The translations under genes and the position numbers were made by a program. Below are positions 2,666-64,000 of a stretch of 64,000 nucleotides of DNA, piece by piece. The number at the start of each line of letters is the position of its first letter. Within the stretch, counting starts at the first letter, position 1. The DNA is taken from assembly GCA_945882915.1 (NCBI GenBank), contig CAMCWV010000004.1:15643-79642 (forward strand), in the 5' to 3' direction. Origin of the DNA: Waddlia chondrophila WSU 86-1044. Lineage in GTDB: Bacteria; Chlamydiota; Chlamydiia; Chlamydiales; CAMCWV01. The notes beneath the pieces are model-generated. The model was given only the letters and a program-made list of their open reading frames with translations. It ran no database searches and was not told the origin of the DNA.

Positions 2666-2672
2666 AGCTCTG

Positions 2673-2880
2673 CTGTAGGAGCCGAGCGAAGCGAGGCTCT
2701 TTGGAGTGCTGGGACTTGTCCTAGCTTTGTTAGGCCTCGACATGTCGAGGCCGTACGACGTAGTAGATTACAAAACTTTGTTGTAATAAAGACACTTATA
2801 CGACCTCGACATGTCGAGGTCTAACAAAGCTAGGACGAGTCCCAGCACTCCAAAGAGCCTCGCTTCGCTCGCTCCTACAG
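2673..2880. repeat. Family A nested palindromic element, copy A1
   Basis: ~78-bp inverted arms (ctgtaggagccgagcgaagcgaggctctttggagtgctgggacttgtcctagctttgttagg... and its reverse complement). Each arm ends in a perfect 20-bp palindrome (ggcctcgacatgtcgaggcc; gacctcgacatgtcgaggtc). Homologous copies at 35388-35568 and 43832-44019. Confidence 0.9.
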
Positions 2881-2900
2881 CACCGGCCGCTAACGTTTAT

Positions 2901-4727: not shown

Positions 4728-4740
4728 GTTTCAAACTCCT

Positions 4741-6135: not shown

Positions 6136-6229
6136 TATTCTGTCCTAAGGTTCATTCGAATGGGCGGTAGTGTAGCAAAAACTCCCGTTTTATACGAGTA
6201 AAGCTTCTTTGCTTGCAAGAGGCACAGGG

Positions 6230-6280
6230 AAATACAAGAACAGGATAGGCAAGATCAGCCTTCGGCTGTCAGGATAAAAA
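6230..6280. repeat. Family E repeat core, copy E2
   Basis: aaatacaagaacaggataggcaagatcagccttcggctgtcaggataaaaa aligns with 48612-48663 (aaatacaagaacaggatgggcaggagccgcctcacggcgggcaggataaaaa). Both contain a central hairpin with a different stem sequence. Confidence 0.55.
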
Positions 6281-6386
6281 GTAAACTTTTAGTGGGAGCT
6301 GCTGCTAGCTATCTGCCTACCTTGACTTTTTAGAAAATTTGATGCATGCTATTTACTTTTTATCACCTAACCAGTAGTTATTTCGC

Positions 6387-7640
6387 TTGCAATTAAAAAT
6401 CTATAACGCCGACGAACATCGCATTCAACACACTCATATCGATCCTGATGCCTTATACGTCGTGATGAGGCTTCAAGAGGCAGGCTTTATCGCTTACCTC
6501 GTAGGAGGCAGCGTGCGGGACCTTTTGATGGACAAAACTCCAAAAGATTTCGATCTTTCGACCTCTGCGCGTCCCGAACAAATCAAGAAGCTGTTTCGCA
6601 ATTGCATCCTCATCGGAAGGCGCTTTCCGCTAGCTCATGTTCGCTTTGGAAAAAAGATCATAGAAGTGGCGACCTTTCGGGCAGGGGACAACAACGATAG
6701 CGGGTTGATTTTGCATGATGCTATATGGGGAACTCCCGAGCAAGACGTGCTCCGCCGAGACTTTACCGTTAATGGCCTTTTCTACGACCCTAGCTCGAAG
6801 ACAGTCATCGATTATGTAGGCGGGTGCGACGACATTATTAAACGACGGCTCCACACAATCGGCGATCCTAAAGTCCGCTTTAAACAAGATCCTGTTCGCA
6901 TGATCCGCCTCTCTAAATTTCATGCGCGCCTTGGCTTTGAGATCGAACGTGCAACAAATGAGGCTTTAATCGAGTGTCGCGAGGAGATCCTTAAAAGTTC
7001 TTCAGCAAGGATCTTAGAGCAGATATTCACAATGTTAGAGTCGGGTGCTGCCGAGCCTTTCTTCCGTCACATGCAAGAGTGCGGGCTTCTTGGTTTGCTG
7101 TTTCCCCGCCTTGCAGAGTGTTTAGCAGAAGATATTGGAGAGCAGATCTACGGGTGCTTGCGCGCGGCAGACTCTTTGATTCAACAAGGGCATCGGCCTG
7201 CGCTTTCTAGAGATGTGCTTGCTTCGTGTTTGCTGTATCCCATTCTCGATAAAAAGATACAAGAGCTCTTGAAAAAGGAAGGGACTAAGCCGGCTCATGT
7301 TGGGGACATTTTTACGATGGCCTATGATGTTGTCCAAGAAATCATGACAGAGGCTTTTTCTCATTTCCCTAGAAGAATGCGAAGTGCTATTGCCTACATC
7401 CTTGGGACCCAATATAGACTCATTCCTACCGGAGGGCGCGCGCCAAGACGCGCTCGCTTTGTTCGGCAAAGAGAGTTTTCTTTAGCGTTACAGTTCTTCG
7501 AGATTCGAACGGTATTAGACGAGCATCTTAGGCCGCTTTATCACACATGGAAGGATCTGGCAAGCGAGCAGAAAAAGCTGCGCCGCTCCAAAGATGACGA
7601 GGGTAATGGCGAGCCTGAGGAGAGCTCTTTTAGCGAATAA
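6387..7640 (+). CDS. pcnB: Poly(A) polymerase I family nucleotidyltransferase
   Basis: 417 aa from TTG. Head domain LVGGSVRDLLMDKTPKDFDLST. LIGRRFPLAHV fits the [LIV][LIV]G[RK][RK]Fx[LIV]h[HQL][LIV] signature reported to separate bacterial PAPs from CCA-adding enzymes. Start codon uncertain. Confidence 0.82.
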   Translation: MQLKIYNADEHRIQHTHIDPDALYVVMRLQEAGFIAYLVGGSVRDLLMDKTPKDFDLSTSARPEQIKKLFRNCILIGRRFPLAHVRFGKKIIEVATFRAGDNNDSGLILHDAIWGTPEQDVLRRDFTVNGLFYDPSSKTVIDYVGGCDDIIKRRLHTIGDPKVRFKQDPVRMIRLSKFHARLGFEIERATNEALIECREEILKSSSARILEQIFTMLESGAAEPFFRHMQECGLLGLLFPRLAECLAEDIGEQIYGCLRAADSLIQQGHRPALSRDVLASCLLYPILDKKIQELLKKEGTKPAHVGDIFTMAYDVVQEIMTEAFSHFPRRMRSAIAYILGTQYRLIPTGGRAPRRARFVRQREFSLALQFFEIRTVLDEHLRPLYHTWKDLASEQKKLRRSKDDEGNGEPEESSFSE

Positions 7641-7672
7641 TTAAGGGTCCTATAACTTTTTGAGGATGTGCT

Positions 7673-8482
7673 GTGAAGACACCTGTTGTAACAAGCTCTG
7701 AGCTGAAGACTCCTTGGGGATCTTCCATTCACTACGCAGGTCCAGGTCTTATGGCAGGTCTTATAGAACAGCCGCCTTTGCCAGCGTTTTTCTATTTTTC
7801 GCTCTCTGGACAGGCAAGCTTGACCCTAGACCCCTACAATCAGCCCGTAGCTTTTTTGCTAAAACAAAGCCAGCTATTAAATCGGCCAGTCCGTTGTTAT
7901 TCTCTGAATCTTCCCGGGCATGGAGAGCCAAAGTCATTTGAAGGGGCCATGAAGTTTTGGGCCTCTTCTTTTGCTAAAGAAGACATTATTCAGCTCTTTG
8001 TTAAAGAGGCTATAGAGTCCATTAGCTATCTGATTGATCAAGGGTATGTTGACCATAAACGTATTGCAGTAGGGGGGCTTTCTAGAGGGGGATTTGCCGC
8101 GTTGCATCTAGCAGCAGCAGATCCGCGCATTGGATCTGTGCTCGCTTTCGCGCCGCTACTTGATCTGGGGGTCGTCTCTGAATTTAAAGAGATTAAAGAC
8201 TCTCCGCTTGTTTGCGCGAGCTCTGCAGATCATTTGGTAGAGAAGCTCGTGAATCGGAATGTTCGACTCTATATTGGCAATCGAGATACGTGCGTTGGGA
8301 CAGAGCCTGCCTTTCGATTTATCCAGAAGCTTGCAGAGGCTGCTTATCACTCAAAGCCATCGGTCCGCTCTCCAAAGGCAGAGTTAATTATTGGCCCTTC
8401 TGTTGGGCATCAGGGGCATGGGACGCTTCCCCATGTATTCTTGGATGGAGCTGAGTGGATTATTAACATATACTCCTCGTAG
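7673..8482 (+). CDS. Alpha/beta-fold hydrolase (esterase/dienelactone-hydrolase-like), substrate unknown
   Basis: 269 aa from GTG. Nucleophile elbow GGLSRGG and C-terminal HQGHG. The last codons and stop (atatactcctcgtag) lie inside repeat D1. Confidence 0.6.
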   Translation: MKTPVVTSSELKTPWGSSIHYAGPGLMAGLIEQPPLPAFFYFSLSGQASLTLDPYNQPVAFLLKQSQLLNRPVRCYSLNLPGHGEPKSFEGAMKFWASSFAKEDIIQLFVKEAIESISYLIDQGYVDHKRIAVGGLSRGGFAALHLAAADPRIGSVLAFAPLLDLGVVSEFKEIKDSPLVCASSADHLVEKLVNRNVRLYIGNRDTCVGTEPAFRFIQKLAEAAYHSKPSVRSPKAELIIGPSVGHQGHGTLPHVFLDGAEWIINIYSS

Positions 8483-11999: not shown

Positions 12000-13040
12000 C
12001 TATAAGGGTTGGTGGGAGGCTAGGCGGAAGGCGCGTTTGATGCCATTGATGATGGCTTTGCTTCCGGCATTGCCGTGGCATTTAATCACAATACCCTCGA
12101 CACCGCAGAGGATGGCTCCGGGGTATTCTGTGTAGTCGAATCGTTTTTTCAGAGTGCTTAAAATCTCGCCAGTTTCTTTTTCAGTTTCTTTTTTGATTTC
12201 TTTTGAAGAGTCGGAGGTAAGCGCTCCTTTAAGCCCTTCGAAAACAAAGGCAGAAACCCCTTCAGAGGTTTTCAGGAAGACATTTCCTGTGAAGCCGTCT
12301 GTAACTAGAACATCGACTTTTCCTTGAAAAACCTCTCTTCCTTCGACGTTGCCAATGAAGTTTATTTTCCCTTCGAGCCTTTGCTGTTCTAATATTTGAT
12401 AGGCTTCTCGGAGCTCTACAGTTCCTTTGCCTGCTTCAACGCCGATGTTGAGTAGACCAGCAGAAGGGTTTGGAATGTTTTGCATGTGGCGTTGATAGGT
12501 GATTCCTAGCTGTGCAAACTCCACAAGCTGAGAGGCTTTGCATGAGACATTGGCTCCCACATCTAAAACTGCAACAGAGCCTGTGATGGTGGGGATAACA
12601 GCGAGAAGTGCGGGACGCTGAATGCCGGGTAACATAGGCAATAAGAGCCTGGCAAAGCCGATGAGAGCGCCTGTATTTCCTGCAGAAATAAAGGCGTTAA
12701 TAGAGCGTTTTTTTAATAGAGAGATGCCAACGGCCAAAGAAGAGCGTTTCTTGCTGCGAATAGCTGCTAAAGGGGATTCTTCCATAGTGACGATCTCTTC
12801 AGCGGGGGCAAACTCAATTTTTGCTGAAGATGAGGCGGCGAGGTTGGAGGAGCTGAAAGAAGAACTAAAAGAAGTCTGGAGAGAGGAGATGAGTTCGGGC
12901 GTAGCGATTGCAATGAGGGTAGCTGTTGCAGGCAGCTCGCAAGCTGCCTGCTGAATAGCCTCAAAAAGGAGTTGGGGAGAGCGGTCACTCCCCATGAGAT
13001 CTATGCCAATGGTGATTCCAAGAGGGGCGTCACTATGCAA
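12000..13040 (-). CDS. plsX: Phosphate acyltransferase PlsX
   Basis: 346 aa from TTG. Motifs GIDLMGSD and GFTGNVFLKTSEG. Lies in the canonical yceD-rpmF-plsX order. Confidence 0.94.
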   Translation of the reverse strand: MHSDAPLGITIGIDLMGSDRSPQLLFEAIQQAACELPATATLIAIATPELISSLQTSFSSSFSSSNLAASSSAKIEFAPAEEIVTMEESPLAAIRSKKRSSLAVGISLLKKRSINAFISAGNTGALIGFARLLLPMLPGIQRPALLAVIPTITGSVAVLDVGANVSCKASQLVEFAQLGITYQRHMQNIPNPSAGLLNIGVEAGKGTVELREAYQILEQQRLEGKINFIGNVEGREVFQGKVDVLVTDGFTGNVFLKTSEGVSAFVFEGLKGALTSDSSKEIKKETEKETGEILSTLKKRFDYTEYPGAILCGVEGIVIKCHGNAGSKAIINGIKRAFRLASHQPL

Positions 13041-13060
13041 GTAGACTTCCTTTGAGGTAG

Positions 13061-13252
13061 TTATTCTGCTTTTGCAATGACAACGAGTGTTTGATTTTTA
13101 CCATTTGTGTACTTGCCACACTTTCCGCAGAGGCAGTGAGGAAGACGGGGTGCGCCACACTCACAAACAAGAACGAATCGTGCTTCTTTTGCGTGGTGTG
13201 AACGACGCATGTTTTTTCTACGGTTTGAACTGCGATTACGAGGAACTGCCAT
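13061..13252 (-). CDS. rpmF: 50S ribosomal protein L32
   Basis: 63 aa. MAVPRNRSSNRRKNMRRSH plus a Cys cluster CECG...CGKCG. Confidence 0.95.
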   Translation of the reverse strand: MAVPRNRSSNRRKNMRRSHHAKEARFVLVCECGAPRLPHCLCGKCGKYTNGKNQTLVVIAKAE

Positions 13253-13276
13253 GACGACCTCTCTAGGTTAAATAAA

Positions 13277-13750
13277 TTAATTTAATAGGTTTGTAAAGGG
13301 GTTATATCCCGCTTCTTCGCCTTCTGATGTTGAATTTTCTTCAGATTTTAAAAAGGGGGTAAGAGTTTCTCTTTCTGGGCACTTCCCTTCGTGACATTCA
13401 GCAAATGGGGGCACTTCTAGAAGGAGTGATTCTCTTACGAACTCTTTCAAATCAAATAGCTTAGTTTTACATTCAGCAAGTGGCTGAGCAAGGTATAGGT
13501 TTTCTAGGACGATAGGAAGGTGCACATCGCCATTGCAGATTGAGCAAGGGAGAATTGCTTCTCCGTTGACATTGAGGTGGATGAGTAGCTCTTCATCGGC
13601 TATATAGGCTTCCCCTTCAATGTGGATGGGGTCGGCAAAGCGCAAGTCTTTGTCATTGATGTCCAAAAGCGCGGAAGGGATCTCTTCGTGAATTTCTTCA
13701 ACGTGCCCTTCTTTGAGACGGTCGGTGTAGATAGTTAGCGCTTCGATCAT
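13277..13750 (-). CDS. yceD: YceD/DUF177 family protein
   Basis: 157 aa, acidic, with CSICNG...ECHEGKCPE Cys motifs. Sits immediately upstream of rpmF, as in many bacteria. Confidence 0.82.
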   Translation of the reverse strand: MIEALTIYTDRLKEGHVEEIHEEIPSALLDINDKDLRFADPIHIEGEAYIADEELLIHLNVNGEAILPCSICNGDVHLPIVLENLYLAQPLAECKTKLFDLKEFVRESLLLEVPPFAECHEGKCPERETLTPFLKSEENSTSEGEEAGYNPFTNLLN

Positions 13751-14084
13751 GTTTTGACTAATAAATGACTTGTGAATTGGTCGAGATTACCTAAAAACCG
13801 CTTTTATCTCCAGTGCTTTTCCTAGAAGCTGCCAAGACGTACAGATACCATGCACAAAAATCGAAAAGGGGAGGTTGTCCTAAACAAGCGTTTGCCCTTG
13901 CCATGCCGGCAAAACCGGACTAGTCCACATGCACCGACGAAGGAGGGGTATATGAACTGTTACGCAAAACCTTAATTTATTTGAATTTTTTATTTTACGA
14001 TAAGTGGATGGTTTTTATTGTAAAATTAGTGTGAGTTGGTTTAGTTTTAATTAAACATGACGGATTAAAATCGCGGGTATACTT

Positions 14085-17000
14085 ATGAAAGATCGTTTTG
14101 CTGTTGGTTCTTTTCAAGACAACATGAAACAGCTCTATACCGCCCATATCATCCATAGGCAAGGGGATCCCAATGTCGAGGTTGCGGGGAAAGAGCGGCT
14201 AAAGCGCACCCAGGAAATTAGCACATTTGCTGTTCGCCATTTGATCAAAGCCAAGGCCTTGCAAAGCGGCGATAAGATCGAGGTTGACGAGTACTATAAA
14301 AAGATCCGCGTTTCCAATAAAGAAAAGTTTAAGTCGTTTTCCTTTAAAGAGTTGGGGATTCTCTTTGACAAAGGCTCACCAAAAAGTAAGCATACAGATG
14401 ATGCGTTGCCTCAGGTAACAGTCGAGGCCTTTGCCGAATCCCTTGTCCATAACATCCCTTTTGCCAAGTCTGCTCGCCTTCGCTACCTAAAAGACGCTGT
14501 TCTTGACCGGTATGCCATGTTCTATTTCACTGACTATCTGTGGGATACGTGGAAAATGCTCTCGATGAACGGGCTTCTTTGGAATATGCTCTCTTTGCCA
14601 GAGAGGATTTTTCACTACGGTCTTGCGGCCATCAACCTCTTGGGCTACGCCTATTTTAGCATTAGAGATCTCGCTAAAAACAAGTTCCCTCAGCTTAAGC
14701 GGGAATTCACCATGTGGATGTTCCAGCGAAATAAGGTCCCTCTTTCTTTGATAGATGCAATGGAAGGGGTTATTCAGTTTTTAGAGATGAAGCGGTCACA
14801 ATCAGCTGAGTACGATCAGGTCATCAATGAATACAAAGCCTGCCGGCGCATAGCCCTTGAGCTTGAGAAGATAAAGGGCTGGACAGTGCCTTTTCAGGTA
14901 AGCGGCGTTAAGAGGCTCGCTGAAAGGCAGGGGAAGGCTATTTCGCAGCTTAATGAGGGGCAGCGTCATCTTGTTCCGGGTGGGGTTTATAAAAATGGGC
15001 AGTTCATCCCTTTTCTCTATGAATTTGAACGGGGAATGGGGGAGGAAAAAGATAAGTGCCTTGTCCGTATCATTGATGTTCACGGGACGTTTTCTTCTTA
15101 TCAAGGGAGTGTCCAAAATGAAGAGACGGGAAAGCTAAAGGCGATCCCTTACATTTCGTTTACGATGGATCTTGCTAGAGCCTCTAATGCAGAAGATGTC
15201 TTGCAGCCACTCTTGGAGCTTCAGCTCCCGGCAGCTTATGCGGAGTTTAAAGCGCCAGAGACGATTGAAATGGCAAGAGCGTTCCTCCAAACGGGCCTTC
15301 TTAAGGCAGCCGATAGAGTTGAGTCGTTGCAAGATCATTGGGCAATACGCCGCGTGGGGAACTATGCCATTGTGCCTGCTCTAAAAGGACTTTCTGGAGT
15401 AACGCAGGTCATTTCGAACTGCTTTGGTTTTGCGGATCTTGGATCAGAGACTCTCGAGAGGATCCTGCCAGAGCTTCAGAAGCTTGACTATCCTAAGAAT
15501 CCGGAGCCGGATGATCCGAAGCTTATGAAGCTTGCAAAGCAAGGAAAGGGGGCCTACAAAACTGCCTGGGCGCTTTTGAAGCTCCGCTTCCCAGATCAAT
15601 GTGCCCGTCTGCAATTGGAGCTTAAATATACCGTTCTCTGTCAGCTTTTTGAAAATGAGAAGGCGCTGCTGTCTAAAGATGCAGGTGCTAGAGAGAGGGC
15701 GGTCATTCGGGAGTGTATTCAAGAGTGGGCTGATTTATTTGAAAAGAGCGCTCCAAAGTTATTTGCTAATGACGACATTCAGCTGCAAGAAGTCCACGGA
15801 ATGAATGAGCGGTTGGAGGGGATTCTTCAACAAATTCAAAAGATGGAAGAGGGGCTTGTTCGTCCTGTTAAAGAGCTTGTAATTCCAAAAAGATGTGTAA
15901 CAACCAATCATGGAAGCGTTGGTCTTTCTGCGCTTGCTCATGTCGATGGTTATGCGCCGATCCCTGCTAAATCGCTTGCGCCTATTATTTCAAGAAGTGT
16001 GATTGACTGGGCTCAAGGTCCTTCTGTCTCGGTGGCTGCTTTTGAGGGGTATCTTAAAGAGATGGACGCTCTTTGTAAGAAGGGTGATGATCACAAGTGG
16101 GAGGCCATTGACGTTGCTGCTGTGGATCTTTTGCGGCAGCTGCCAATTCCAACAGTGGGTGAAAGTATAGATCCTGTTTGGGATAGCAAGATGACGCCTG
16201 AGCAAATTTCGCATTGGCAAGAACTTGTGCACAGAGCGCGTGAATACGTCTGGAAGGCAAATCACATAAGGCAGACAGATGGGGTGACAGGGGTACATGC
16301 CGAGGCGCTTGCTAGAAGTGCAGCTGTGAGTCTAAAGCTGGCAATGCGTAATAAAGATGTAAACATGATAGGGCCTGTTGCGGGAATGGACCTGAGTCCC
16401 TTCGAGGCCATCACAGACAACAAGACCTTCTATTTTGCAAGTAAGGAGCAAGAAGATTCGGTGAGGGGTTGTCTTGACTTTATGCGAGAGGTAAATAAGC
16501 TATCTGAAAAAGAGTTCCCCCTGAGTGGGATTCACCTGTTAAACAAATCTTTAGGTGTTGGGGGAATACAAGATTGGAGGGAGGAGAGAGCGCTCTGGAT
16601 ATATGTAGAGGCTATTTACCAGAAGATCCATGGAGTTTTCGATTTTGATTGCGCTCTTAATCCAGCAGAGCGTTTTAAACATTTAAGAGAGGTGTCAACC
16701 TCTCTGGACTACCCTAGGCTTCCTGGAGTTAAGAAGCATCTTTCGACGCTGAAAGCTGTTTTACAGAAGCTTCCCCCAAAAGACTACACGGAGATTGCTA
16801 AGTTAAAGACGCTTCTTGAGCGTTTACCACAGGCATTTGAGTTTACTGGAGAGGATGCTGCTATTGAAGGTAAGTTAAAGGCGCTCAGTGACGAGCTGAA
16901 CTTGTTGCGTGAGCAGCTTAAGATCAAAAAAGACATCCCTCTCACATCCATTGGAAAGATGTACCCTAGAGAGATTTCGCAAGTTACTGGGGGGGAGGCA

Positions 17001-26528: not shown

Positions 26529-26594
26529 GCCCCTCTAACCGCTCTAAATAAAAATCGCGGAAGCGAAGCTCTTTGAGTTGCCGCAAAAATCAAA

Positions 26595-26684
26595 CAGGGG
26601 CCTGAAAGGTCCTAATGTTACAGCGGGAAGCCTTCCGCTAACGCTTCGACCTCAGGCTGTAACATTAGGACCTTTCAGGCCCTT
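26595..26684. repeat. Family B palindromic element, copy B1 (short variant)
   Basis: caggggcctgaaaggtcctaatgttacagc ... gctgtaacattaggacctttcaggccctt. The arms match B2 at 51575-51789. Confidence 0.85.
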
Positions 26685-26706
26685 GTTCAATTAATGTGTT
26701 CAGCTC

Positions 26707-26982
26707 GGCATTGCCCGCGTAATTGCAATTGCAGCCTTACAGGCTGCATGGGATATATTCGCTTATACCCAGGGCGCTGCCCTGGGCTATGTGCATTTTC
26801 AGCCCTTCAGGCTGAAGCTGGGGAGCTGAGGCGCTTTTAGTTAAAGCCTTTTGCATAAAGTCTCAGCCTGTAAGGCTGAAAATGCACACAGCCCAGGGCA
26901 GGCGCCCTGGGTATAGGCAAATATATTTTACGCAGCCTGTAAGGCTGCTACTCTTAGGGGGCTGTAATTATGCAATAATGCC
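26707..26982. repeat. Family C nested palindromic element, copy C1 (full length)
   Basis: Termini ggcattgcccgcgtaattgcaatt / ctgtaattatgcaataatgcc. Local hairpins gcagccttacaggctgc, cccagggcgctgccctggg and agcccttcaggct, each mirrored in the right half. Homologs at 55650, 63076, 50189 and 61065. Confidence 0.9.
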
Positions 26983-35387: not shown

Positions 35388-35568
35388 GGAGTGAGCGGGG
35401 CGAACTCTTTGGAGTGCAGGGACTTGTCCTAGCTTTCATTAAGCGGGACATGTCCCGCTTAAGACACATAGGTATGCTTGCTAAGGTTCAGAGGGCTCGA
35501 CATGTCGAGCCCTAATGAAAGCTAGGACAAGTCCCAGCACTCCAAAGAGCTACGCTACCGCTTGCTCC
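35388..35568. repeat. Family A nested palindromic element, copy A2
   Basis: Outer arms ggagtgagcggggcgaactctttggagtgcagggacttgtcctagctttcatt / aatgaaagctaggacaagtcccagcactccaaagagctacgctaccgcttgctcc. Inner palindromes ttaagcgggacatgtcccgcttaa and agggctcgacatgtcgagccct. Confidence 0.9.
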
Positions 35569-35632
35569 TTAAGCGGGGCCTGAGCTAAACGTTGTTAATC
35601 ACGCAGAGGCCCTTAAAACGCGGCCTTTCCCC

Positions 35633-50188: not shown

Positions 50189-50262
50189 GGCGTTGCCCGC
50201 ATAATTGTAATTGCAGCCTTACAGGCTGCTACTCTTAAGGATCTATAATTATGCAACAACGC
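50189..50262. repeat. Family C minimal derivative, copy C4
   Basis: ggcgttgcccgcataattgtaattgcagccttacaggctgctactcttaaggatctataattatgcaacaacgc. This is the two C termini plus one hairpin, with the whole interior missing. Confidence 0.8.
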
Positions 50263-51558: not shown

Positions 51559-51574
51559 CCCGCAAAATTCAAAT

Positions 51575-51789
51575 AGGGGCCTGAAAGGCCTTAATATTAC
51601 AGCCCAGGTCGAAGCGTTAGCGTAAGGCCTGGGTAAGACGAAGTATTCAATCTGAGTCCTGTAAGGACGGTAGAAATTGAAGTTATTAACTATGCCGTCC
51701 TTACAGGACTCAGGGGTTTATTGCATTTTACCCAGGCCTTACGCTAGCGCTTCGGCCTGGGCTGTAATATTAAGGCCTTTCAGGCCCCT
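51575..51789. repeat. Family B nested palindromic element, copy B2 (full length)
   Basis: 62-nt arms aggggcctgaaaggccttaatattacagcccaggtcgaagcgttagcgtaaggcctgggtaa and its complement, with 2 mismatches. An inner palindrome gagtcctgtaaggacgg...ccgtccttacaggactc lies at 51653-51712. Confidence 0.92.
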
Positions 51790-51840
51790 GCTTAATTTTT
51801 GAGGAAGCTTCAAAGTCTTGCCTGAGCAGAGGCTCTAAAT

Positions 51841-55649: not shown

Positions 55650-55861
55650 GGCATTGCCCGCATAATTGCAGCCCCTTAAGAGTAGCAGCCTTACAGGCTG
55701 CGTAGGATATATTCGCTTATACCCAGGGCGGTGCCCTGGGCTGTTCGCATTTTCAGCCCTTCAGGCTGAACCTGAGAAGCTGAGGTGGTTTTATAGTAGT
55801 TAAAGCCTTTTGCATAAAATCTCAGCCTGTAAGGCTGCAATTATAATTATGCAACAAGGCC
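55650..55861. repeat. Family C element, copy C2 (right half internally deleted)
   Basis: ggcattgcccgcataattgcagccccttaagagtagcagccttacaggctgcgtaggatatattcgcttatacccagggcggtgccctggg...tctcagcctgtaaggctgcaattataattatgcaacaaggcc. Lacks the mirrored cccaggg hairpin block. Confidence 0.88.
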
Positions 55862-57491: not shown

Positions 57492-58727
57492 ATGGTTTTT
57501 TTTATTATCGAATTTCTGCGCAGCGTGTTTGATGTCAAAATCCCTCAAGTTTTTGAGTACTACTCCACGCGGATGATGCTGGCAGCCCTGACAACGCTTT
57601 GTCTGTGCATTTTCTTGGGGCCGCGGTTCATTAAGAAATTGTATGAGCTAAAAATTGGGCAGCCCATCCGGATGGAAGAGTGCCCAACGCTTGGGCATTT
57701 ACACAGCAATAAAAAAGACACTCCTACAATGGGGGGGATTCTTATTCTCATCTCCATGGTGATCTCGCTGCTGCTGTGGATGGATCTTACAAGCTCCTTT
57801 ACCCTTATTTTACTTGTTACAACCATTTGGCTTGGGGGCATTGGCGCCCGTGACGACTATCTTAAGCTTCGTTACAAGAATAGCAAAGGGCTGGCCGGTA
57901 GAAAGAAAATGGCTCTTCAGGTGCTTTTTGGGGCAGTGCTTGCTATTTATTTGCTCTGTCCTACAGTTGCAGAGTCAATTCACGTAGGGAAATGGTTTGC
58001 TCCGCCTATTGCCAAGGAGCAGGTGATGGCTGTAAGCGATACGATCCCAGATCGTCCAGAGCATGCTAAAGGAACTGTTTTGCAGGCGCCTTCTTACGTG
58101 GCACGCCTCTATGTCCCTTTTTTTAAGGAGCCCGTTTATGTTTTTGCAGGGCCTCTTTTAGCCGTTTTATTTTTGTTTATTATAGCAGTGGTTACAGGCT
58201 CTTCGAATGCTGTGAACCTGACTGATGGACTTGACGGGCTTGCTGCGGGGTGTTTGGTCATCGTTGCTGGGGTCTTTGCTTTTTACGCTTTTATTTCAAA
58301 CAACATCGATTGGGCTAATTACCTGCATATTCTCTACATTGAACAGAGCGGGGAGATTGCCATTTACCTCAGCGCTATGGCTGGGGCTTGTTTGGGGTTC
58401 TTGTGGTTTAACGGGGCCCCCGCTCAGGTATTTATGGGAGATACGGGCTCTTTGGCGCTTGGCGGGATTATTGGAGTGTCGGCAGTGCTCATTAAAAAAG
58501 AATTGCTTTTGGTTATTGTCGGGGGGATCTTTGTCATCGAGACGTTATCTGTGATTCTTCAGGTGGCCAGCTACCGCCTTCGCAATAAGAAGCGGATTTT
58601 CTTGTGCACGCCTATCCACCATCATTTTGAGTTTAAAGGGTGGGCAGAGACAAAGGTGGTGATTCGCTTTTGGATTGTGGGTCTTTTATTTGCAATTGTC
58701 GGCATCCTAGCGATCAAATTCCAATAA
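57492..58727 (+). CDS. mraY: Phospho-N-acetylmuramoyl-pentapeptide transferase
   Basis: 411 aa. Motifs DTPTMGGI, NAVNLTDGLDGLA, VFMGDTGSLALGG and PIHHHFE. Somewhat longer than the typical ~360 aa. Confidence 0.95.
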   Translation: MVFFIIEFLRSVFDVKIPQVFEYYSTRMMLAALTTLCLCIFLGPRFIKKLYELKIGQPIRMEECPTLGHLHSNKKDTPTMGGILILISMVISLLLWMDLTSSFTLILLVTTIWLGGIGARDDYLKLRYKNSKGLAGRKKMALQVLFGAVLAIYLLCPTVAESIHVGKWFAPPIAKEQVMAVSDTIPDRPEHAKGTVLQAPSYVARLYVPFFKEPVYVFAGPLLAVLFLFIIAVVTGSSNAVNLTDGLDGLAAGCLVIVAGVFAFYAFISNNIDWANYLHILYIEQSGEIAIYLSAMAGACLGFLWFNGAPAQVFMGDTGSLALGGIIGVSAVLIKKELLLVIVGGIFVIETLSVILQVASYRLRNKKRIFLCTPIHHHFEFKGWAETKVVIRFWIVGLLFAIVGILAIKFQ

Positions 58728-58950
58728 AAAATTAAACTCAAAGAAGCAAAGAAGCCTTCCATCAGCCATCTCTGACCGCTTTAAATTTAATCTTTTTGTC
58801 GCACTTCACTGTTGAATGGGCCGGTCAAATACGCTTAAAGTGACTTGCGAAATGCTGTCCAGTTTTTGGGCTCCAACATACTAAAATGTTTAATCGGTCA
58901 AGTATGGAAAAATAGGGGGGGGGTAGAGAGGGGCAGCTTTAGTCATAAAA

Positions 58951-60846
58951 ATGTTAAAAAAAAAGAATGGTTTGACTACAGTGTGCCGTTTTAGAGGACG
59001 TCACCCAGGTTGTTTTTTAATGGAAGATCCCCACGCGGCGTATAAAACTCTCTACGATGTTGTCATCCCAGATATAGACTACTATCTCAAGCAAATCGAC
59101 TGCCGTGATGGGTGTCCTGTCAATACGGATGGGCGCGGGTATATGCTCGCTATCCATGCCGGCAACTTGCTCGAAGGGTACAAGATCGCTCGGGGGCCTA
59201 ACCCTTTTGCTTCGATTTGCGGGTGGATCTGCGGCGCTCCTTGCGAGATGGCCTGTCGGCGCGACCGGGTAGACAAGACCTTGACTATTCGGGCCCAAAA
59301 ACGCTACCTCGACGAGTGGTTTGGCGTTGATGGCGAAGCTCATATTAAGTCACTTGAGATGAGCTTTGCCAGAGGGTCTACCCATCCAGAGCCAAACGGC
59401 CTTAAGGTCGCCTGTGTGGGATCTGGGGTAGCCTCTCTAACCACCGCTCACGACCTCCTCCGTTTGGGCTATGAAGTGCATGTTTATGAGCAGATGCCAC
59501 ACCCTGGGGGCATGCTTGTCTATGGGGTCCCGAACTACCGCTTAAAAAACGAGATCGCTCTTGCTGAGTGCGCCGCTATTGAGCATTTAGGCGCCAAGAT
59601 GATCTACAACACCAAAATAGGAAGAGATGTCACTCTCGCAGAGCTCCAGGCTAAATATAATGCCGTTTTTATAGGCAATGGCTTGTGGCGCTCTCGAGAC
59701 CTCCCTATCCCGGGAGCTGACGGCCCCGACATCATTAAGGGCGTTGAGTATCTTAAAGTTCTTTGCTCTGATCGGAGGTGGGCAATTGGGAAGAACATCG
59801 TTGTTATCGGCGGAGGAAACGTCTCTTTTGACGTGGCTAGATCTTCTGTTCGAAACGGTGCAGAGAAGGTCACAATGGCCTGCTTAGAATCGCGCGATGA
59901 ACAAACAGCTGATGAGTTTGAAATCGAAGATGGAATCGAAGAAGGAATCGCACTTATTAATCGCGTAGGTCCCATACGAGTCGTCCGTGATGCCTCTGGG
60001 AAGGTATCAGGTGTAGAGTTCCAAAGAATTACCTCTCTTTTTGATCACGACAAGCGGTTTGCGCCTAAATTTATTCCAGGCACTAACTTTGTGATTCCTT
60101 GTGACACGGTAGCCCTTGCTATTGGACAGGCAATGGACACCACTCTTTTTGATGGGTGGGATAAGAAAAGTGAAGTCTTCGATAGAGGGCTCCTTAAAGT
60201 AGAAAGGGGAACAGGGCGGACTCCGGTTCAAGGGATCTATGCTGGCGGCGACGCTGCTTTTGGCCCTGCACTTTTCATTACAGCTATTCGGCATGGCCAA
60301 GAGGCAGCTATAGCTATTGACGAAGACCTGCTTAAAACCAAGCCTTACAAAGAGTATGTAGCGGAGTTTACAACGATTCCTGCGATGAGGGACAAAACCT
60401 ACCTTCGGACTAAATGGTCCCTTCCTTCTTATTTGTCTCCGGAAGAGCGGGTGAAGACAACCGATATCGTCGAAAATACCTACACAACAGAAGAAGTGAT
60501 TAACCAGTCTAACCGTTGTCTCCAGTGTCACGTCTCGCCAGTATTTGATGGTACTCTTTGTATTAAGTGTAACGGATGTGTCGATGTGTGCCCAACTAAC
60601 TGTCTCAAACAGATCCCTCTTAACATGCTCAATATGGATTTGGGAGATGGGCAGATGCGTAAGGCTGTTGACAATTTTTACGGTATTGATTCAGCTTCTA
60701 CCGATAGTGAAGAATTGGGTGTTATTGGCACTGCTATGTTGAAGGATGAAGACCTATGCATCCGGTGCGGATTATGTGCAGAAAAGTGCCCCACACAGGC
60801 CGTGACGATGGATATGATGAATTACACGTTTCATTGGGTGGGGTGA
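58951..60846 (+). CDS. GltD-family NAD(P)H-dependent flavin oxidoreductase with N-terminal Fe-S cluster region and C-terminal 2x[4Fe-4S] ferredoxin domain
   Basis: 631 aa. Cys cluster CRDGCPVN...CGWICGAPCEMACRR. Rossmann motifs KVACVGSGVASLTTAHDLLRLGYEVHVYE and VVIGGGNVSFDVARS. Ferredoxin motifs CIKCNGCVDVCP and CIRCGLCAEKCP. The true start may be M24 (59020). Confidence 0.8.
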   Translation: MLKKKNGLTTVCRFRGRHPGCFLMEDPHAAYKTLYDVVIPDIDYYLKQIDCRDGCPVNTDGRGYMLAIHAGNLLEGYKIARGPNPFASICGWICGAPCEMACRRDRVDKTLTIRAQKRYLDEWFGVDGEAHIKSLEMSFARGSTHPEPNGLKVACVGSGVASLTTAHDLLRLGYEVHVYEQMPHPGGMLVYGVPNYRLKNEIALAECAAIEHLGAKMIYNTKIGRDVTLAELQAKYNAVFIGNGLWRSRDLPIPGADGPDIIKGVEYLKVLCSDRRWAIGKNIVVIGGGNVSFDVARSSVRNGAEKVTMACLESRDEQTADEFEIEDGIEEGIALINRVGPIRVVRDASGKVSGVEFQRITSLFDHDKRFAPKFIPGTNFVIPCDTVALAIGQAMDTTLFDGWDKKSEVFDRGLLKVERGTGRTPVQGIYAGGDAAFGPALFITAIRHGQEAAIAIDEDLLKTKPYKEYVAEFTTIPAMRDKTYLRTKWSLPSYLSPEERVKTTDIVENTYTTEEVINQSNRCLQCHVSPVFDGTLCIKCNGCVDVCPTNCLKQIPLNMLNMDLGDGQMRKAVDNFYGIDSASTDSEELGVIGTAMLKDEDLCIRCGLCAEKCPTQAVTMDMMNYTFHWVG

Positions 60847-60852
60847 TTTGGG

Positions 60853-60984
60853 ATGTACTGGCTTATCATTAGTTCTGTTGTGGCAGGGCTTTCAGGGCTT
60901 GTTGCTTACATTTATTTCATGAAGAAGGGGCAATTTGACGATGCAGAAGATGTCAAATACCAGATGTTTCGTGATGAGGATTAG
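60853..60984 (+). CDS. ccoS: CcoS/FixS-like small membrane protein (43 aa), absent from the ORF track
   Basis: Hand translation gives MYWLIISSVVAGLSGLVAYIYFMKKGQFDDAEDVKYQMFRDED*. It has one TM helix, then GQFDD and an acidic tail, the pattern I recall for cbb3-oxidase maturation protein CcoS. Starts 7 nt after the preceding stop. Confidence 0.6.
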   Translation: MYWLIISSVVAGLSGLVAYIYFMKKGQFDDAEDVKYQMFRDED

Positions 60985-61064
60985 TGTGGGCTTTGTGGGC
61001 GCTAAATCAACGTTTATTGCAGGCTTGATTGAGGATGATTTTCAGGGTTTATGAGTTGTGCAAA

Positions 61065-61125
61065 GCACTGCCCGCATAATCCACTAAAGAAAAACAGTAA
61101 AGCCTTTTTTTGCATTTTCTCTGAG
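61065..61125. repeat. Family C degenerate fragment, copy C5
   Basis: gcactgcccgcataat (a C terminus) followed by gtaaagcctttttttgcattttctctgag (resembles the C core ttaaagccttttgcataaaatctcag). The interior is missing. Confidence 0.4.
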
Positions 61126-61187
61126 CTCTTTCACGCCTCTGAGGATTTTGTGCTGAGGAAAGGATAAGGGTAGAAGAGTAAGGAATT

Positions 61188-61700
61188 ATGCCTAAGTATC
61201 GCAATAGTTTGAATGTTGACAATCTTGAAAAGGGTGACCCGCGCATCACCCGAAGGAAGTTTCTTGTCCTTTTGGGAGTAGGGGCTCTTGCTGGGGTTGT
61301 GAACATGATAGGGACCAGCATATTCGGCTTCTTGTATCCAAATGCAATGAAAATGCCGCCAGCAGTTTTTGCATTAGGACGTCCGGCCCACGTTTTAAAG
61401 GCTGATGGAAAGAGATTTAATTCTCAGCAGAAGGTTTATATCGAGGTTGATAACGGGAAAGTGCGCTGTCAAACAGCTGTGTGCACCCATCTTGGTTGCA
61501 CGGTTAATCCTGTAGAAACAGGATATTCCTGCCCGTGCCATGGCTCTACGTATGATCTTGAAGGAAAAAATACAGGGGGGCCTGCTCCAAAGCCTCTTGT
61601 TTATTTCGAGGTTTCAAAAGGGGCTTCTGGAGAGCTTCTGGTGGATAAGTCTCGCCCCATTGATGACCCCAATAAGGCTTGGTATCCTTCTAATGCTTAA
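61188..61700 (+). CDS. petA: Rieske [2Fe-2S] subunit of a cytochrome bc-type complex, Tat signal
   Basis: 170 aa. Twin-arginine ITRRKFLVLLGVGALAG. Cluster boxes CTHLGCTV and CPCHGSTYD. Confidence 0.92.
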   Translation: MPKYRNSLNVDNLEKGDPRITRRKFLVLLGVGALAGVVNMIGTSIFGFLYPNAMKMPPAVFALGRPAHVLKADGKRFNSQQKVYIEVDNGKVRCQTAVCTHLGCTVNPVETGYSCPCHGSTYDLEGKNTGGPAPKPLVYFEVSKGASGELLVDKSRPIDDPNKAWYPSNA

Positions 61701-61735
61701 TTTAATTAGATAACGGTAAAGAGGAAGTTTCGCCC

Positions 61736-63064
61736 ATGGCGGTATTTCGCGGAAAACGGAAAGAAAGTTGGCTAGAGTACATGGAGAAGCTCCCTTCTAC
61801 CATTATCCGCTCTATCTTCCGTCACAACTACCCTAATAATGACGTTGACAGATCAGAAGTTGTCTTTAAAAACTTCTTTCTTCACATCCACCCTGTGAAG
61901 TGTCATAAACATGTCCTAGAGCCTTTTTACACGCTCGGACTTGGAGTCATTACAGCGAGCCTTTTCTTTTTGCTCGTTCTTTCTGGCGTGATTTTGATGT
62001 TTTGGTATGTGCCAACTGTTGATAGGGCCTACGACATCATGAAAGAGTTTCACGACACGACCCCTTTCGGAATGATGTACCGAAACATCCACAGATGGGG
62101 GGCGCAAATGATGGTGCTCTTCGTCTTCCTCCACATGTCGCGTGTTTTTTATACCGGCTCATACAAAGGGACCAGGCGCTTTAATTGGGTAATCGGGGTC
62201 ATTCTTATGGTCCTCACTCTTTTTTTGTCCTTTACTGGCTACCTTCTTCCGTGGGATCAGCTCGCTTTTTGGGCAATTACCGTGGGCTCATCCATTGCGG
62301 GGTATGCCCCTGGGATTCCAGGCATGCAGTACAACATTAACAAAATTATGCTGCTTGCCAATACAACCGTTGGGCAGGATGCGTTAATTCGTTTTTATGT
62401 GCTTCACATCATGGTGCTCCCTATTTTTGCAGGGATGCTTATCGGCGTACACTTCTGGCGTATTCGCAAAGATGGTGGGCTATCGCGCCCTCCTGATGAC
62501 TATCGCCCTGATCCATTACGTGTTATCCAAAGATCTGACACTAAAGAGGTGTTTGCTCCCGGTGTTAGGAGGACGTATGGTCTCATGGAGCTTGTGAGGG
62601 GGACGTGTCCAACAGTAGATAGAGGACCGTTTAATTATGTATTTACCTGGCCACATCTACTGCGCGCGGAGATACTTGTCTTTATGGGGACGACAGTTGT
62701 CATTCTGCTCCTTTCTTATTTTATTAACGCTCCTCTAGAAGAGATGGCAGATCCGACTAAGCCTACAAATCCTTCAAAAGCCCCTTGGTACTTTTTGGGC
62801 TTGCAAGAGATGGTTGCTTATTCTGCTTTCTGGGGAGGGGTTGGCGTGCCTACGCTTATTGTGGCAGGATTGATAGCACTTCCCTATTTGGATCGCAACC
62901 CCCATGGAGAAGGGTATTGGTTCCATAGATCTCGTTATTTGGCGATTTTCCTCTACACAGCCTTTATGAGTTCGCAGGGGTTGTTAGTTGTGGTTGGTGT
63001 TTATTTTCGCGGGGCGAACTGGGGATGGATATGGCCGTGGACCGAAAACTTTGCCCGTCACTGA
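61736..63064 (+). CDS. petB: Cytochrome b (fused b6 + subunit IV-like)
   Basis: 442 aa. Motifs [46 protein letters not shown] and [25 protein letters not shown] (heme His pairs). Also a PEWY-like [10 protein letters not shown]. Confidence 0.93.
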
Positions 63065-63075
63065 TTAGAAGAATG

Positions 63076-63356
63076 GGCGTTGTTGCCTAATTACAGCCCT
63101 TTAACAGTAGCAACCTTACAGGCTGTGTAGGACATATTCACTTATACCCAGGGGGCTGCCCTGGGTTGTTTGCAGGTTCAATCCTTCAGGCTGAACCTGA
63201 GAAGCTGAGGTGGTTTTATAGTAGTTAAAGCGTTTTGCATAAAATCTCAGCCTGAAAGGTTGTAATTGCAAACAGCGTAAGGGCAGCGCCCTGGGTATAG
63301 GCGAGCATATCCCATGCAGCCTGTAAGGCTGCAATTACAATTATGCGGGCAATGCC
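63076..63356. repeat. Family C element, copy C3 (full length)
   Basis: ggcgttgttgcctaattacagccctttaacagtagcaaccttacaggctg ... gcagcctgtaaggctgcaattacaattatgcgggcaatgcc. The core is the same as in C1/C2. Confidence 0.9.
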
Positions 63357-63578
63357 GAGAGGAAGAGGGAAGTAGATAAAGAGGTATAGCGCGGTCTCAT
63401 TATTTTTAAGAGCATAGTCAAATGCACAAAGTGTTTAGAGAGATATGTTTAGTTGTTGGGTGCCTCCGCCATAGGGCCTCTTATAGTCTTTGTACCTTTC
63501 CATCTTTGAGTTTTTGCGGTAAAAAAATTAATACATTCCCACTTCCCCCGATTGAAAAGGCAATAGAGGGGTCTTCTA

Positions 63579-64000
63579 ATGCGCGCTGAACGCTATCAAA
63601 TAGCTTTGGTTATTTGCATGATCCTCGTGGCAGGTACTACTGGGCTGTTTCTCTATGATGAACTTTTTCCTGAATACAAGGTCTACCAAAACGGCTACGA
63701 AAAAGTAGAAGAGTTTCGCTCTACATATACAGGCGAGGCACCGCCACATTTCAGTTCAGGCATTAAGCAAGTTGTTATTACAAGAGAGGATAAGGGACCA
63801 GAAACTGTTGATCGATGCATTTCTTGTCACGTAACCTTGCAGTTTGCCCATTTTTCTCCAACAAAACCTGCCATCGATGATAAGGGAAATACTATCTTTG
63901 ATGCAGATGGGAAGGTTCTTCTTGTCCCCAATGAAGAGTATGTATGGAGTAAGTTGAATGAGCAAATTGCCTCGACAGAGGATCCTCAAAAGAAAGAAGA
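63579..64000 (+). CDS. Membrane-anchored c-type cytochrome, 5' part (runs off window), absent from the ORF track
   Basis: Hand translation from ATG 63579 gives MRAERYQIALVICMILVAGTTGLFLYDELF...VDRCISCHVTLQFAHF...TEDPQKKE, with no stop before the edge. It has one TM helix and a CxxCH heme motif, downstream of Rieske/cyt b. Confidence 0.6.
   Translation, partial: MRAERYQIALVICMILVAGTTGLFLYDELFPEYKVYQNGYEKVEEFRSTYTGEAPPHFSSGIKQVVITREDKGPETVDRCISCHVTLQFAHFSPTKPAIDDKGNTIFDADGKVLLVPNEEYVWSKLNEQIASTEDPQKKE

Follow-up and report, generated by a model that had tools for sequence, protein, structure and literature searches.

A GltD/NfnB-like flavoprotein gene is a conserved part of the Rieske/cytochrome b and cbb3 oxidase operon of environmental chlamydiae

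The last ~5 kb of a 64,000-nucleotide (nt) stretch of the Waddlia chondrophila WSU 86-1044 genome (contig CAMCWV010000004.1 of assembly GCA_945882915.1, positions 15,643 to 79,642; hereafter the window) encode a GltD/NfnB-like NAD(P)-binding flavoprotein, a small FixS/CcoS-like protein, a Rieske protein, a fused cytochrome b and the beginning of a membrane-anchored multihaem cytochrome c. These five genes are the front portion of a nine-gene operon that continues with the genes of a cbb3-type oxygen reductase, and in which the flavoprotein gene is a near-constant companion of the Rieske and cytochrome b genes. By analogy with complexes of anaerobic ammonium-oxidising (anammox) bacteria, the flavoprotein is probably a subunit of the Rieske/cytochrome b complex. 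An earlier note, made from the letters of the window alone, had claimed five same-strand genes in this region; all were found on the + strand where it had placed them, and Pfam and NCBIfam searches upheld its labels for all five proteins.

The flavoprotein sequence was utilized as a query against species-representative genomes, which retrieved 80 loci at 69-74% identity. By their titles, nearly all of these were chlamydial (Parachlamydiaceae, Waddliaceae and Protochlamydia), together with a few entries titled ‘uncultured bacterium’ and one titled ‘Gammaproteobacteria’. Searches with tblastn located a Rieske gene downstream of the flavoprotein gene and on the same strand in 78 of the 79 loci with room for it, at a median gap of 159 nt; this is the space occupied by the FixS-like open reading frame (ORF), which was present in 79 of the 80 loci. 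Cytochrome b followed in 72 of 73 loci, and in 55 of 61 ccoN lay no more than 10 kb away. The murF and mraY genes, situated ahead of the cluster in the window, were found at none of the 80 loci, and such variation in the upstream genes among genomes indicates that the block moves as a unit. In Parachlamydia acanthamoebae UV-7, for instance, all nine genes occur in unchanged order, with gaps of 1-28 nt or overlaps between them, downstream of different genes.

The linkage was also evident in the reverse direction. When cytochrome b was used as a query against metagenome contigs, and loci were counted if they had 2.7 kb or more of sequence ahead of it, the flavoprotein gene was found upstream of cytochrome b in 24 of 24 loci. 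Distant cytochrome b loci (46-55% identity) still carried a flavoprotein gene, at 34-47% identity. One metagenomic locus (Ga0335085_10028561, 837-7750) has a rearranged operon, in which the Rieske, cytochrome b, cytochrome c, ccoN and ccoO genes are followed by the GltD-like gene; linkage that survives rearrangement favours function over inertia as its cause. The earlier note had looked to co-occurrence of the flavoprotein with petAB across genomes, and among these chlamydial and metagenomic loci it is near-universal both ways. In a few chlamydial genomes the operon is interrupted by 1-4 kb of additional DNA, either between the flavoprotein and FixS genes or between the Rieske and cytochrome b genes (L078, 11810-15790; L082, ~12500-15580), with further such sites at ~12100-13660 of L050 and 7697-9019 of L011.

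As the cytochrome c gene exceeds the window end, the rest of the operon was read from L001, a near-identical public contig with an identical flavoprotein that runs beyond this point. The portion of the cytochrome c inside the window has an N-terminal transmembrane anchor and a CISCH motif, whilst the complete protein on L001 comprises 1131 amino acids (aa) with seven CxxCH motifs, the last haem domain being CcoP-like. Behind its gene come ccoN, for a protein of 493 aa, ccoO, for one of 445 aa, and two small ORFs of 57 and 93 aa. CcoN scored 294 bits against COX1 and 291 bits against the ccoN model TIGR00780, for which the cut-off is 583, and is by these scores a divergent representative; CcoO has one haem motif and scored 76 bits against FixO. 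The combination of CcoN with a monohaem CcoO on L001 assigns the oxidase, as predicted from the proteins, to the cbb3 type (C-family haem-copper oxidase). No separate ccoP gene was found in the L001 operon, the CcoP-like domain being situated in the cytochrome c. The earlier note had looked beyond the window end for the full cytochrome c and any oxidase genes behind it, and this contig supplied both.

Several features of these downstream proteins were observed in passing. The 445-aa chlamydial CcoO (L001, 13646-14983) contains ~240 residues with no family match between its anchor and the FixO domain (residues 281-381), and the CcoO of two non-chlamydial loci, L090 and P0266, is merely 196-266 aa long. 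The 57-aa protein (L001, 14983-15156) has a single transmembrane segment and is similar in its C-terminal half to the 43-aa FixS-like protein, with cross-matches between the two in tblastn; the 93-aa protein (L001, 15160-15441) has no family match. Both small ORFs are kept across the chlamydial loci. The cytochrome c was also considered as a fusion of three cytochromes, and gave only partial matches to the three separate cytochromes of L090; such a fusion is possible but not demonstrated.

Table 1. Features at the end of the window (positions are those of the window).
Feature	Position	Strand	Basis and remarks
GltD/NfnB-like NAD(P)-binding flavoprotein	58951..60846	+	631-aa ORF, Pfam/NCBIfam; alternative start 59020
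FixS/CcoS-like single-transmembrane protein, cbb3 maturation factor family	60853..60984	+	43 aa, Pfam FixS
Rieske [2Fe-2S] subunit, predicted twin-arginine (Tat) export	61188..61700	+	170-aa ORF, Pfam/NCBIfam, box motifs
Fused cytochrome b (b6-like half and subunit-IV-like half)	61736..63064	+	442-aa ORF, Pfam/NCBIfam
Palindromic repeat resembling a miniature inverted-repeat transposable element (MITE), in the spacer between the cytochrome b and cytochrome c genes	63085..63364		Repeat search and folding
Membrane-anchored multihaem cytochrome c, N-terminal 140 aa in the window	63579..64000	+	Gene exceeds the window end

The flavoprotein comprises an N-terminal Fer4_20 domain (residues 48-124), a Pyr_redox_2 domain (152-449) and two C-terminal Fer4 motifs according to Pfam. 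The two CxxCxxCxxxCP motifs begin at residues 537 and 603 and constitute a split 2x[4Fe-4S] ferredoxin domain. Alignments to homologues begin at residues 20-31, and the start in P. acanthamoebae is at about the equivalent of residue 22, hence the real start may be Met24 (608 aa rather than 631). No hydrophobic or transmembrane segment was found in the flavoprotein, which should therefore be cytoplasmic. Amongst NCBIfam models, PRK12771, which describes a whole-length subfamily, matched it best, with 382 bits where the cut-off is 516. The relatives of the flavoprotein in the PDB are NfnB and StnC-type modules.

The earlier note had named orthology to a characterised unrelated enzyme as a reading that would undo its own. 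In the corresponding alternative, a canonical complex III would simply neighbour an unrelated NfnB-, SudA- or GltD-type protein whose partner is encoded elsewhere. Residues 50-460 are clearly NfnB/GltD-like (E 1e-66 to 1e-48), and databases label the relatives ‘sulfide dehydrogenase subunit alpha’ or ‘formate dehydrogenase beta subunit’. Yet none of the NCBIfam equivalog models for characterised NfnB, SudA or GltD reached its cut-off with the flavoprotein (gltA, for example, scored 260 against 472), and the C-terminal ferredoxin domain has no counterpart in the 468-aa NfnB chain. The nearest non-chlamydial relatives, at 45% identity, are likewise linked to Rieske and cytochrome b genes, the linkage is near-universal from either gene, and a complex that has no cytochrome c1 is not canonical. 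An adjacent NfnA/SudB or GltB partner was not found in the operon of the window, L001 or L003, a genome-wide partner search not having been made and the 80 chlamydial loci having been scanned for the operon proteins of the window only. We regard the unrelated-neighbour explanation as very improbable.

One difference within the nucleotide-binding domain concerns the end of the beta-2 strand, where residues are used under the Rossmann-fold rule to tell NADH from NADPH preference. This position (window 59770-59940, residues ~276-330) reads CLE in the chlamydiae and in most of the Rieske/cytochrome b-linked relatives, and YRR in NfnB, the StnC-type proteins and the anammox subunit. The replacement may represent a switch from NADPH to NADH.

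The 43-aa protein scored 36.2 bits against Pfam FixS (cut-off 23.1) and 25.7 against NCBIfam ccoS, slightly under the cut-off of 28.35, and has one transmembrane segment. The Rieske protein carries a twin-arginine signal (TIGR01409, 18.2 bits; cut-off 16.7), one transmembrane segment and the motifs CTHLGC...CPCHGS, its box II being CPCHGSTY, of the ‘SY’ type; CPCHGS(T/V)Y was present in 79 of 79 chlamydial Rieske proteins found. Amongst NCBIfam models it is closest to the b6f type, and its top matches in the PDB are two Kuenenia Rieske proteins, 9rk3 and 9rk4.

Cytochrome b was best matched by two NCBIfam models below their cut-offs, ExtP for the N-terminal half (240 bits; cut-off 290) and ExtQ for the C-terminal half (76 bits; cut-off 150). 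Among solved relatives b6 chains scored best (132 bits) and bc1 chains lower. The protein has approximately seven transmembrane segments, of which the C-terminal half contributes three hydrophobic segments, compared with five in the anammox locus described below. The haem-ligand histidines H119, H133, H224 and H239 are invariant in the aligned sequences, an 11-residue motif of the Qo region is common to all relatives compared, anammox included, and the quinol-site motif contains APWY rather than PEWY. The haem cn cysteine of CxGG is not present in the chlamydial cytochrome b, where Gly68 stands instead; according to Dibrova et al. (2017), loss of CxGG is tied to cytochrome b fusion within this group. 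The fused cytochrome b, the absence of haem cn, the oxygen reductase partner and the CLE nucleotide motif are the variant features of the chlamydial system.

Kuenenia possesses two Rieske/cytochrome b complexes, both of which include a putative NAD(P) reductase on the cytoplasmic side and in which quinol bifurcation has been proposed to drive NAD(P)+ reduction (PMC12954380), and the subunits of the Kuenenia Rieske/cytochrome b complex, including the flavoprotein homologue, have been reported to co-migrate. An anammox locus (L004) was fetched with a fragment of 9rk3, and its residue numbering agrees with Kustd1481 and Kustd1483. It encodes, in order, a Rieske protein, cytochrome b, a 566-aa oxidoreductase, subunit IV and a 945-aa multihaem cytochrome. 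The window flavoprotein aligns with this Kustd1483-like oxidoreductase over residues 35-626 at 31% identity (E 7e-88), the split ferredoxin included. Cytochrome b is 47% identical to that of the anammox locus, its C-terminal half shares 46% identity with the subunit IV of that locus, and the 1131-aa cytochrome c has a weak but significant match to the 945-aa cytochrome (E 6e-14). His50 of the window cytochrome b aligns with Kustd1481 His62, which in an AF3 (AlphaFold 3) model binds an extra haem b at the cytochrome b dimer interface, and is invariant in eight of eight sequences; the RK of WRIRKDGG corresponds to Kustd1481 Arg266/Lys267. At the sequence level, the identities of the flavoprotein and of cytochrome b uphold the analogy to the anammox complexes. 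The earlier note had proposed an analogous non-canonical bc complex in another lineage of the Planctomycetes-Verrucomicrobia-Chlamydiae (PVC) group; homology and conserved linkage bear out the first part of this, whilst the PVC-specific setting does not stand, as the Nitrospirota and others also have the family. Physical association of the chlamydial subunits is inferred from homology to the co-migrating Kuenenia complex.

This wider distribution was apparent from an exhaustive search of cluster representatives, which returned 2696 homologues of the flavoprotein at E <= 1e-30. The split C-terminal ferredoxin layout was seen in ~90 of the best 150, and the nearest non-chlamydial members are 36-45% identical to the window protein, closer than the anammox subunit. 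Named relatives, compiled from the homologue search irrespective of gene context, belong to Acidobacteriota, Anaeromyxobacter, Deltaproteobacteria, Nitrospirae and cultured Leptospirillum. Six of the seven non-chlamydial relatives that were looked up are adjacent to Rieske and cytochrome b genes, or seven of eight with the anammox locus (31-45% identity). On this evidence, the flavoprotein/Rieske/cytochrome b family is not a PVC trait.

The linked relatives vary in the remainder of their operons. L090 encodes FixS, a fused cytochrome b, three cytochromes c, ccoN and ccoO, whilst the P0266 locus has FixS, a fused cytochrome b and ccoNO, and then CcoG-, DsbD- and CcoI-like genes; in L087 FixS is present and the contig then ends. 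A Nitrospirota metagenome-assembled genome (L088) has a split cytochrome b, as does L091, which adds an eight-haem cytochrome, and L092 combines a fused cytochrome b with multihaem cytochromes and a molybdopterin enzyme. The high-potential partner thus differs among linked relatives, being cbb3, multihaem c or a molybdopterin enzyme. Outside the chlamydiae, FixS was seen only with ccoNO or on the contig that was too short, and in none of the four operons that lack ccoNO (L004, L088, L091 and L092). This pattern fits the annotated role of FixS in cbb3 maturation, and it indicates that the partner of the flavoprotein is the Rieske/cytochrome b core and not the oxidase.

The same four operons bear on the suggestion that the flavoprotein is co-transcribed with the complex without being a subunit of it, acting instead as a soluble reductase in oxidase biogenesis or protection, for instance in copper or haem handling with FixS/CcoS. 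The position of the FixS/CcoS maturation gene between the flavoprotein and Rieske genes, the CcoG-, DsbD- and CcoI-like genes further along the P0266 operon and the absence of a membrane segment from the flavoprotein are all in keeping with such a role. It is improbable nonetheless, given that the Rieske/cytochrome b linkage is maintained in operons with neither ccoNO nor FixS and that the anammox homologue reportedly co-migrates with the Rieske/cytochrome b complex.

If the flavoprotein is a subunit, the nine-gene operon would encode a complete quinol-to-oxygen module with a cytoplasmic port for nicotinamide nucleotides. Menaquinol would be the substrate of a Rieske/cytochrome b complex resembling the anammox Kustd1480-85 complex in type, and the first electron would pass from the Rieske cluster to the anchored seven-haem cytochrome c with its CcoP-like end, then to cbb3 (CcoN and CcoO) and finally to O2. 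The flavoprotein, as the cytoplasmic subunit, would provide a chain leading from FAD through two N-terminal iron-sulfur (Fe-S) clusters to the two C-terminal [4Fe-4S] clusters, and this chain would connect NAD(P)(H) with the low-potential b-haem side of cytochrome b. The second electron would be pushed uphill to NAD(P)+, at the expense of O2 reduction rather than of nitrite reduction. We lean towards this model with its NAD(P)+-reducing direction, though our confidence in the whole of it falls a little short of even.

Several observations are in favour of this direction. The published tree legend assigns the ‘SY’ class of Rieske proteins a potential of +300-350 mV (PMC3509893), and chlamydiae make menaquinone; the two together reproduce the asymmetry between Rieske protein and quinone which Hauser et al. 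argued to fit NAD(P)+ reduction. The family also occurs in lithotroph lineages, for which uphill electron flow is a necessity, and this counts on the same side.

A competing proposal retains the assembly and reverses the flow. The flavoprotein would then be an NAD(P)H dehydrogenase module mounted on cytochrome b, passing electrons through the Fe-S chain and the N-side haem to quinone, and the operon would amount to an entire NAD(P)H to O2 chain. Such flow is thermodynamically downhill and would suit a heterotroph, and Dibrova et al. (2017) view this group of cytochromes b as former anchors of membrane-bound dehydrogenases. The CLE in place of YRR suggests NADH, the catabolic carrier, and cytochromes b from operons with and without the flavoprotein gene are about equally similar to that of the window (45-55% identity), as though the core had not been re-engineered. 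On the other hand, a plain dehydrogenase would have no need for the asymmetry between menaquinone and an SY-type, presumably high-potential, Rieske protein, and, as Hauser et al. pointed out, the arrangement is wasteful where pumping NADH dehydrogenases exist, chlamydiae having NQR and some also Nuo. Relatives in Nitrospirota, Leptospirillum and anammox bacteria, lithotroph lineages needing uphill flow, are a further difficulty for it. We consider reverse flow rather unlikely, though it is the most serious of the alternatives.

The NAD(P)+-reducing model has its own difficulties, and the following points weigh against it. Chlamydiae are heterotrophs with Na+-NQR, and in some cases also Nuo (PMC9816063), and have no obvious need for uphill reduction of NAD(P)+; moreover, if CLE denotes a preference for NADH over NADPH, an anabolic purpose is weakened. 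The absence of the haem cn cysteine and of two extra subunit-IV helices means that the electron path modelled for the anammox complex may differ here. His50 and the RK pair were considered as markers of flavoprotein-bearing complexes and rejected, since both are equally kept in two operons with no flavoprotein gene, L005 (Omnitrophica WOR_2, MHFY01000136.1) and L006, which consist of Rieske, cytochrome b, subunit IV and a ~1000-aa eight-haem cytochrome; these residues are therefore not diagnostic. The exception among the non-chlamydial relatives (P0246, locus L089; GCA_027392435.1, DAHYRL010000009.1, 10001-11923) has 44% identity and the same architecture, yet has no Rieske/cytochrome b neighbour, being surrounded by ThuA, ABC transporter and PhyH genes. 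Finally, internal gaps of 203 nt between FixS and Rieske and of 515 nt between cytochrome b and cytochrome c make co-transcription in this genome no more than plausible. As a separate observation, the L005 operon is placed between an ATP synthase operon and COX3/COX4 genes.

With regard to the gaps, co-transcription in W. chondrophila is plausible by analogy with the gene packing of its relatives, the cytochrome b/cytochrome c junction in P. acanthamoebae for example being 18 nt. The longer gap contains a palindromic repeat of ~280 nt (families D1, D2, I1, I8 and I12), other copies of which lie at 26699-26981, 50189-50262 and 55660-55842. The spacer RNA folds into a very stable hairpin, much better than shuffled sequence (z = -9.4). 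The repeat is a MITE-like insertion, and the operon of relatives does not contain it. A scan of 58600-64000 yielded no promoter-like sites on the + strand by consensus and terminator-like matches at or under shuffle expectation, and an Rfam search of the region gave no match. The ORFs on the - strand (MQPYRLRFYAK...) are artefacts of the palindromic repeat. Two more short inverted or palindromic repeat families occur in the window, at 2667-2871, 35405-35579 and 43828-44019 and at 51560-51804 and 26576-26624; they cover D4, D5, D7, I2, I3, I5, I9 and I10.

Parts of this system have been reported previously. Dharamshi et al. (2023) placed a PetBD bc complex and a cbb3 CcoNO in chlamydial ancestors, with PetBD lost in the Chlamydiaceae (PMC9816063); the statement in the earlier note that the pathogenic Chlamydiaceae are not known to have a complex III matches this loss, and the presence of the complex in other chlamydiae, which it thought worthy of remark, had accordingly been published already. 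Baymann et al. (2012) grouped the cytochromes b of Parachlamydia and Waddlia with Kuenenia complexes 1 and 2 and inferred lateral transfer (PMC3509893). Dibrova et al. (2017) describe a ‘subfamily G’ of cytochromes b accompanied by large Fe-S oxidoreductases that bind NAD(P), both in planctomycetes and ‘in many other cases’, and mention long cytochrome b genes within large operons that are conserved but whose function is unknown. Within our partial coverage of the literature, no text was found that assigns the flavoprotein to the respiratory operon of chlamydiae or that describes a fixed coupling to cbb3.

The present analysis adds an overlooked subunit, as we take the flavoprotein to be, to the reported ‘PetBD + CcoNO’ branch, and raises a question concerning the NAD(P)H balance of the symbionts. 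The respiratory operon of environmental chlamydiae has, as a fixed component, a Rieske/cytochrome b module with an NAD(P) oxidoreductase, and this module belongs to a family that spans several phyla. Whether NAD(P)H is produced by quinol bifurcation has stood as a question since the anammox proposal, and the chlamydial operon bears on it, as its coupling to an oxygen reductase suggests a simple exergonic partner reaction. More broadly, the chlamydial operon and its counterparts in five or more other phyla might encode O2-driven, electron-bifurcating producers of NAD(P)H that use no membrane potential; we entertain this generalisation with more doubt than belief. If true, it would extend the anammox hypothesis to aerobes and obligate intracellular symbionts, and would name the missing exergonic partner reaction of the Kustd1480-type complex. 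Parachlamydia, Protochlamydia and Waddlia grow in amoeba culture, and are thus amenable to complexome and activity tests.

Compared with known systems, the flavoprotein matches the NfnB, GltD and StnC-type modules in core fold and cofactor motifs over residues 50-460, from which it differs by its added split ferredoxin domain, by CLE where NfnB has YRR and by the lack of an NfnA- or GltB-type partner in the operon of the window, L001 and L003. The complex is not a canonical bc1, for it has neither a monohaem cytochrome c1 nor PEWY, and has a seven-haem cytochrome instead. Its resemblance to cytochrome b6f and to the Firmicute and heliobacterial bc complexes lies in b6 chains being the nearest solved cytochromes b and in the b6f-like Rieske protein; it differs from them in that its cytochrome b is fused and without the haem cn cysteine, that it has neither cytochrome f nor dihaem c, and that a flavoprotein is added. 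The Geobacter ExtP/ExtQ proteins, a b-type cytochrome from a selenite/tellurite reduction operon, gave the top models for both halves of cytochrome b, but are encoded by split genes in a dissimilar operon context, and their scores remained below the cut-offs.

The cytochrome c invites a comparison with the CIII2CIV supercomplex of Rhodobacter capsulatus and the actinobacterial bcc-aa3 supercomplex, where an anchored multi-domain cytochrome c bridges the Rieske/cytochrome b complex and a haem-copper oxidase. The chlamydial cytochrome c is comparable in that its last haem domain is CcoP-like and a separate ccoP is absent, and gene order suggests a possible chlamydial supercomplex. We know of no flavoprotein subunit in the bc-cbb3 or bcc-aa3 supercomplexes.

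The closest counterparts are the two anammox complexes. Kuste4569-4574, for which quinol bifurcation was first proposed, follows the same principle of a Rieske/cytochrome b core with a cytoplasmic NAD(P) reductase and multihaem cytochromes; compared by description only, its exergonic partner is an octahaem protein resembling hydroxylamine oxidoreductase (HAO), a proposed nitrite reducer, whereas the chlamydial partner is cbb3. Kustd1480-1485 differs from the chlamydial system in gene organisation, the flavoprotein gene lying between those of cytochrome b and subunit IV rather than first, and the chlamydial operon also including a FixS gene and a cbb3 oxidase. It differs also in its proteins: the chlamydial cytochrome b and subunit IV are fused, without the haem cn cysteine and with three rather than five helices in the subunit-IV part, the cytochrome c has seven CxxCH motifs in place of eight, the beta-2 end reads CLE in place of YRR, and the Rieske protein is of the SY rather than the SF type. 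Nonetheless, Kustd1480-1485 shares with the chlamydial operon a Rieske protein, a b6-type cytochrome b, a subunit-IV module and a large anchored multihaem cytochrome c, together with a flavoprotein of the same layout, from the N-terminal Fe-S region through the FAD/NAD domain to the split C-terminal 2x[4Fe-4S] ferredoxin.

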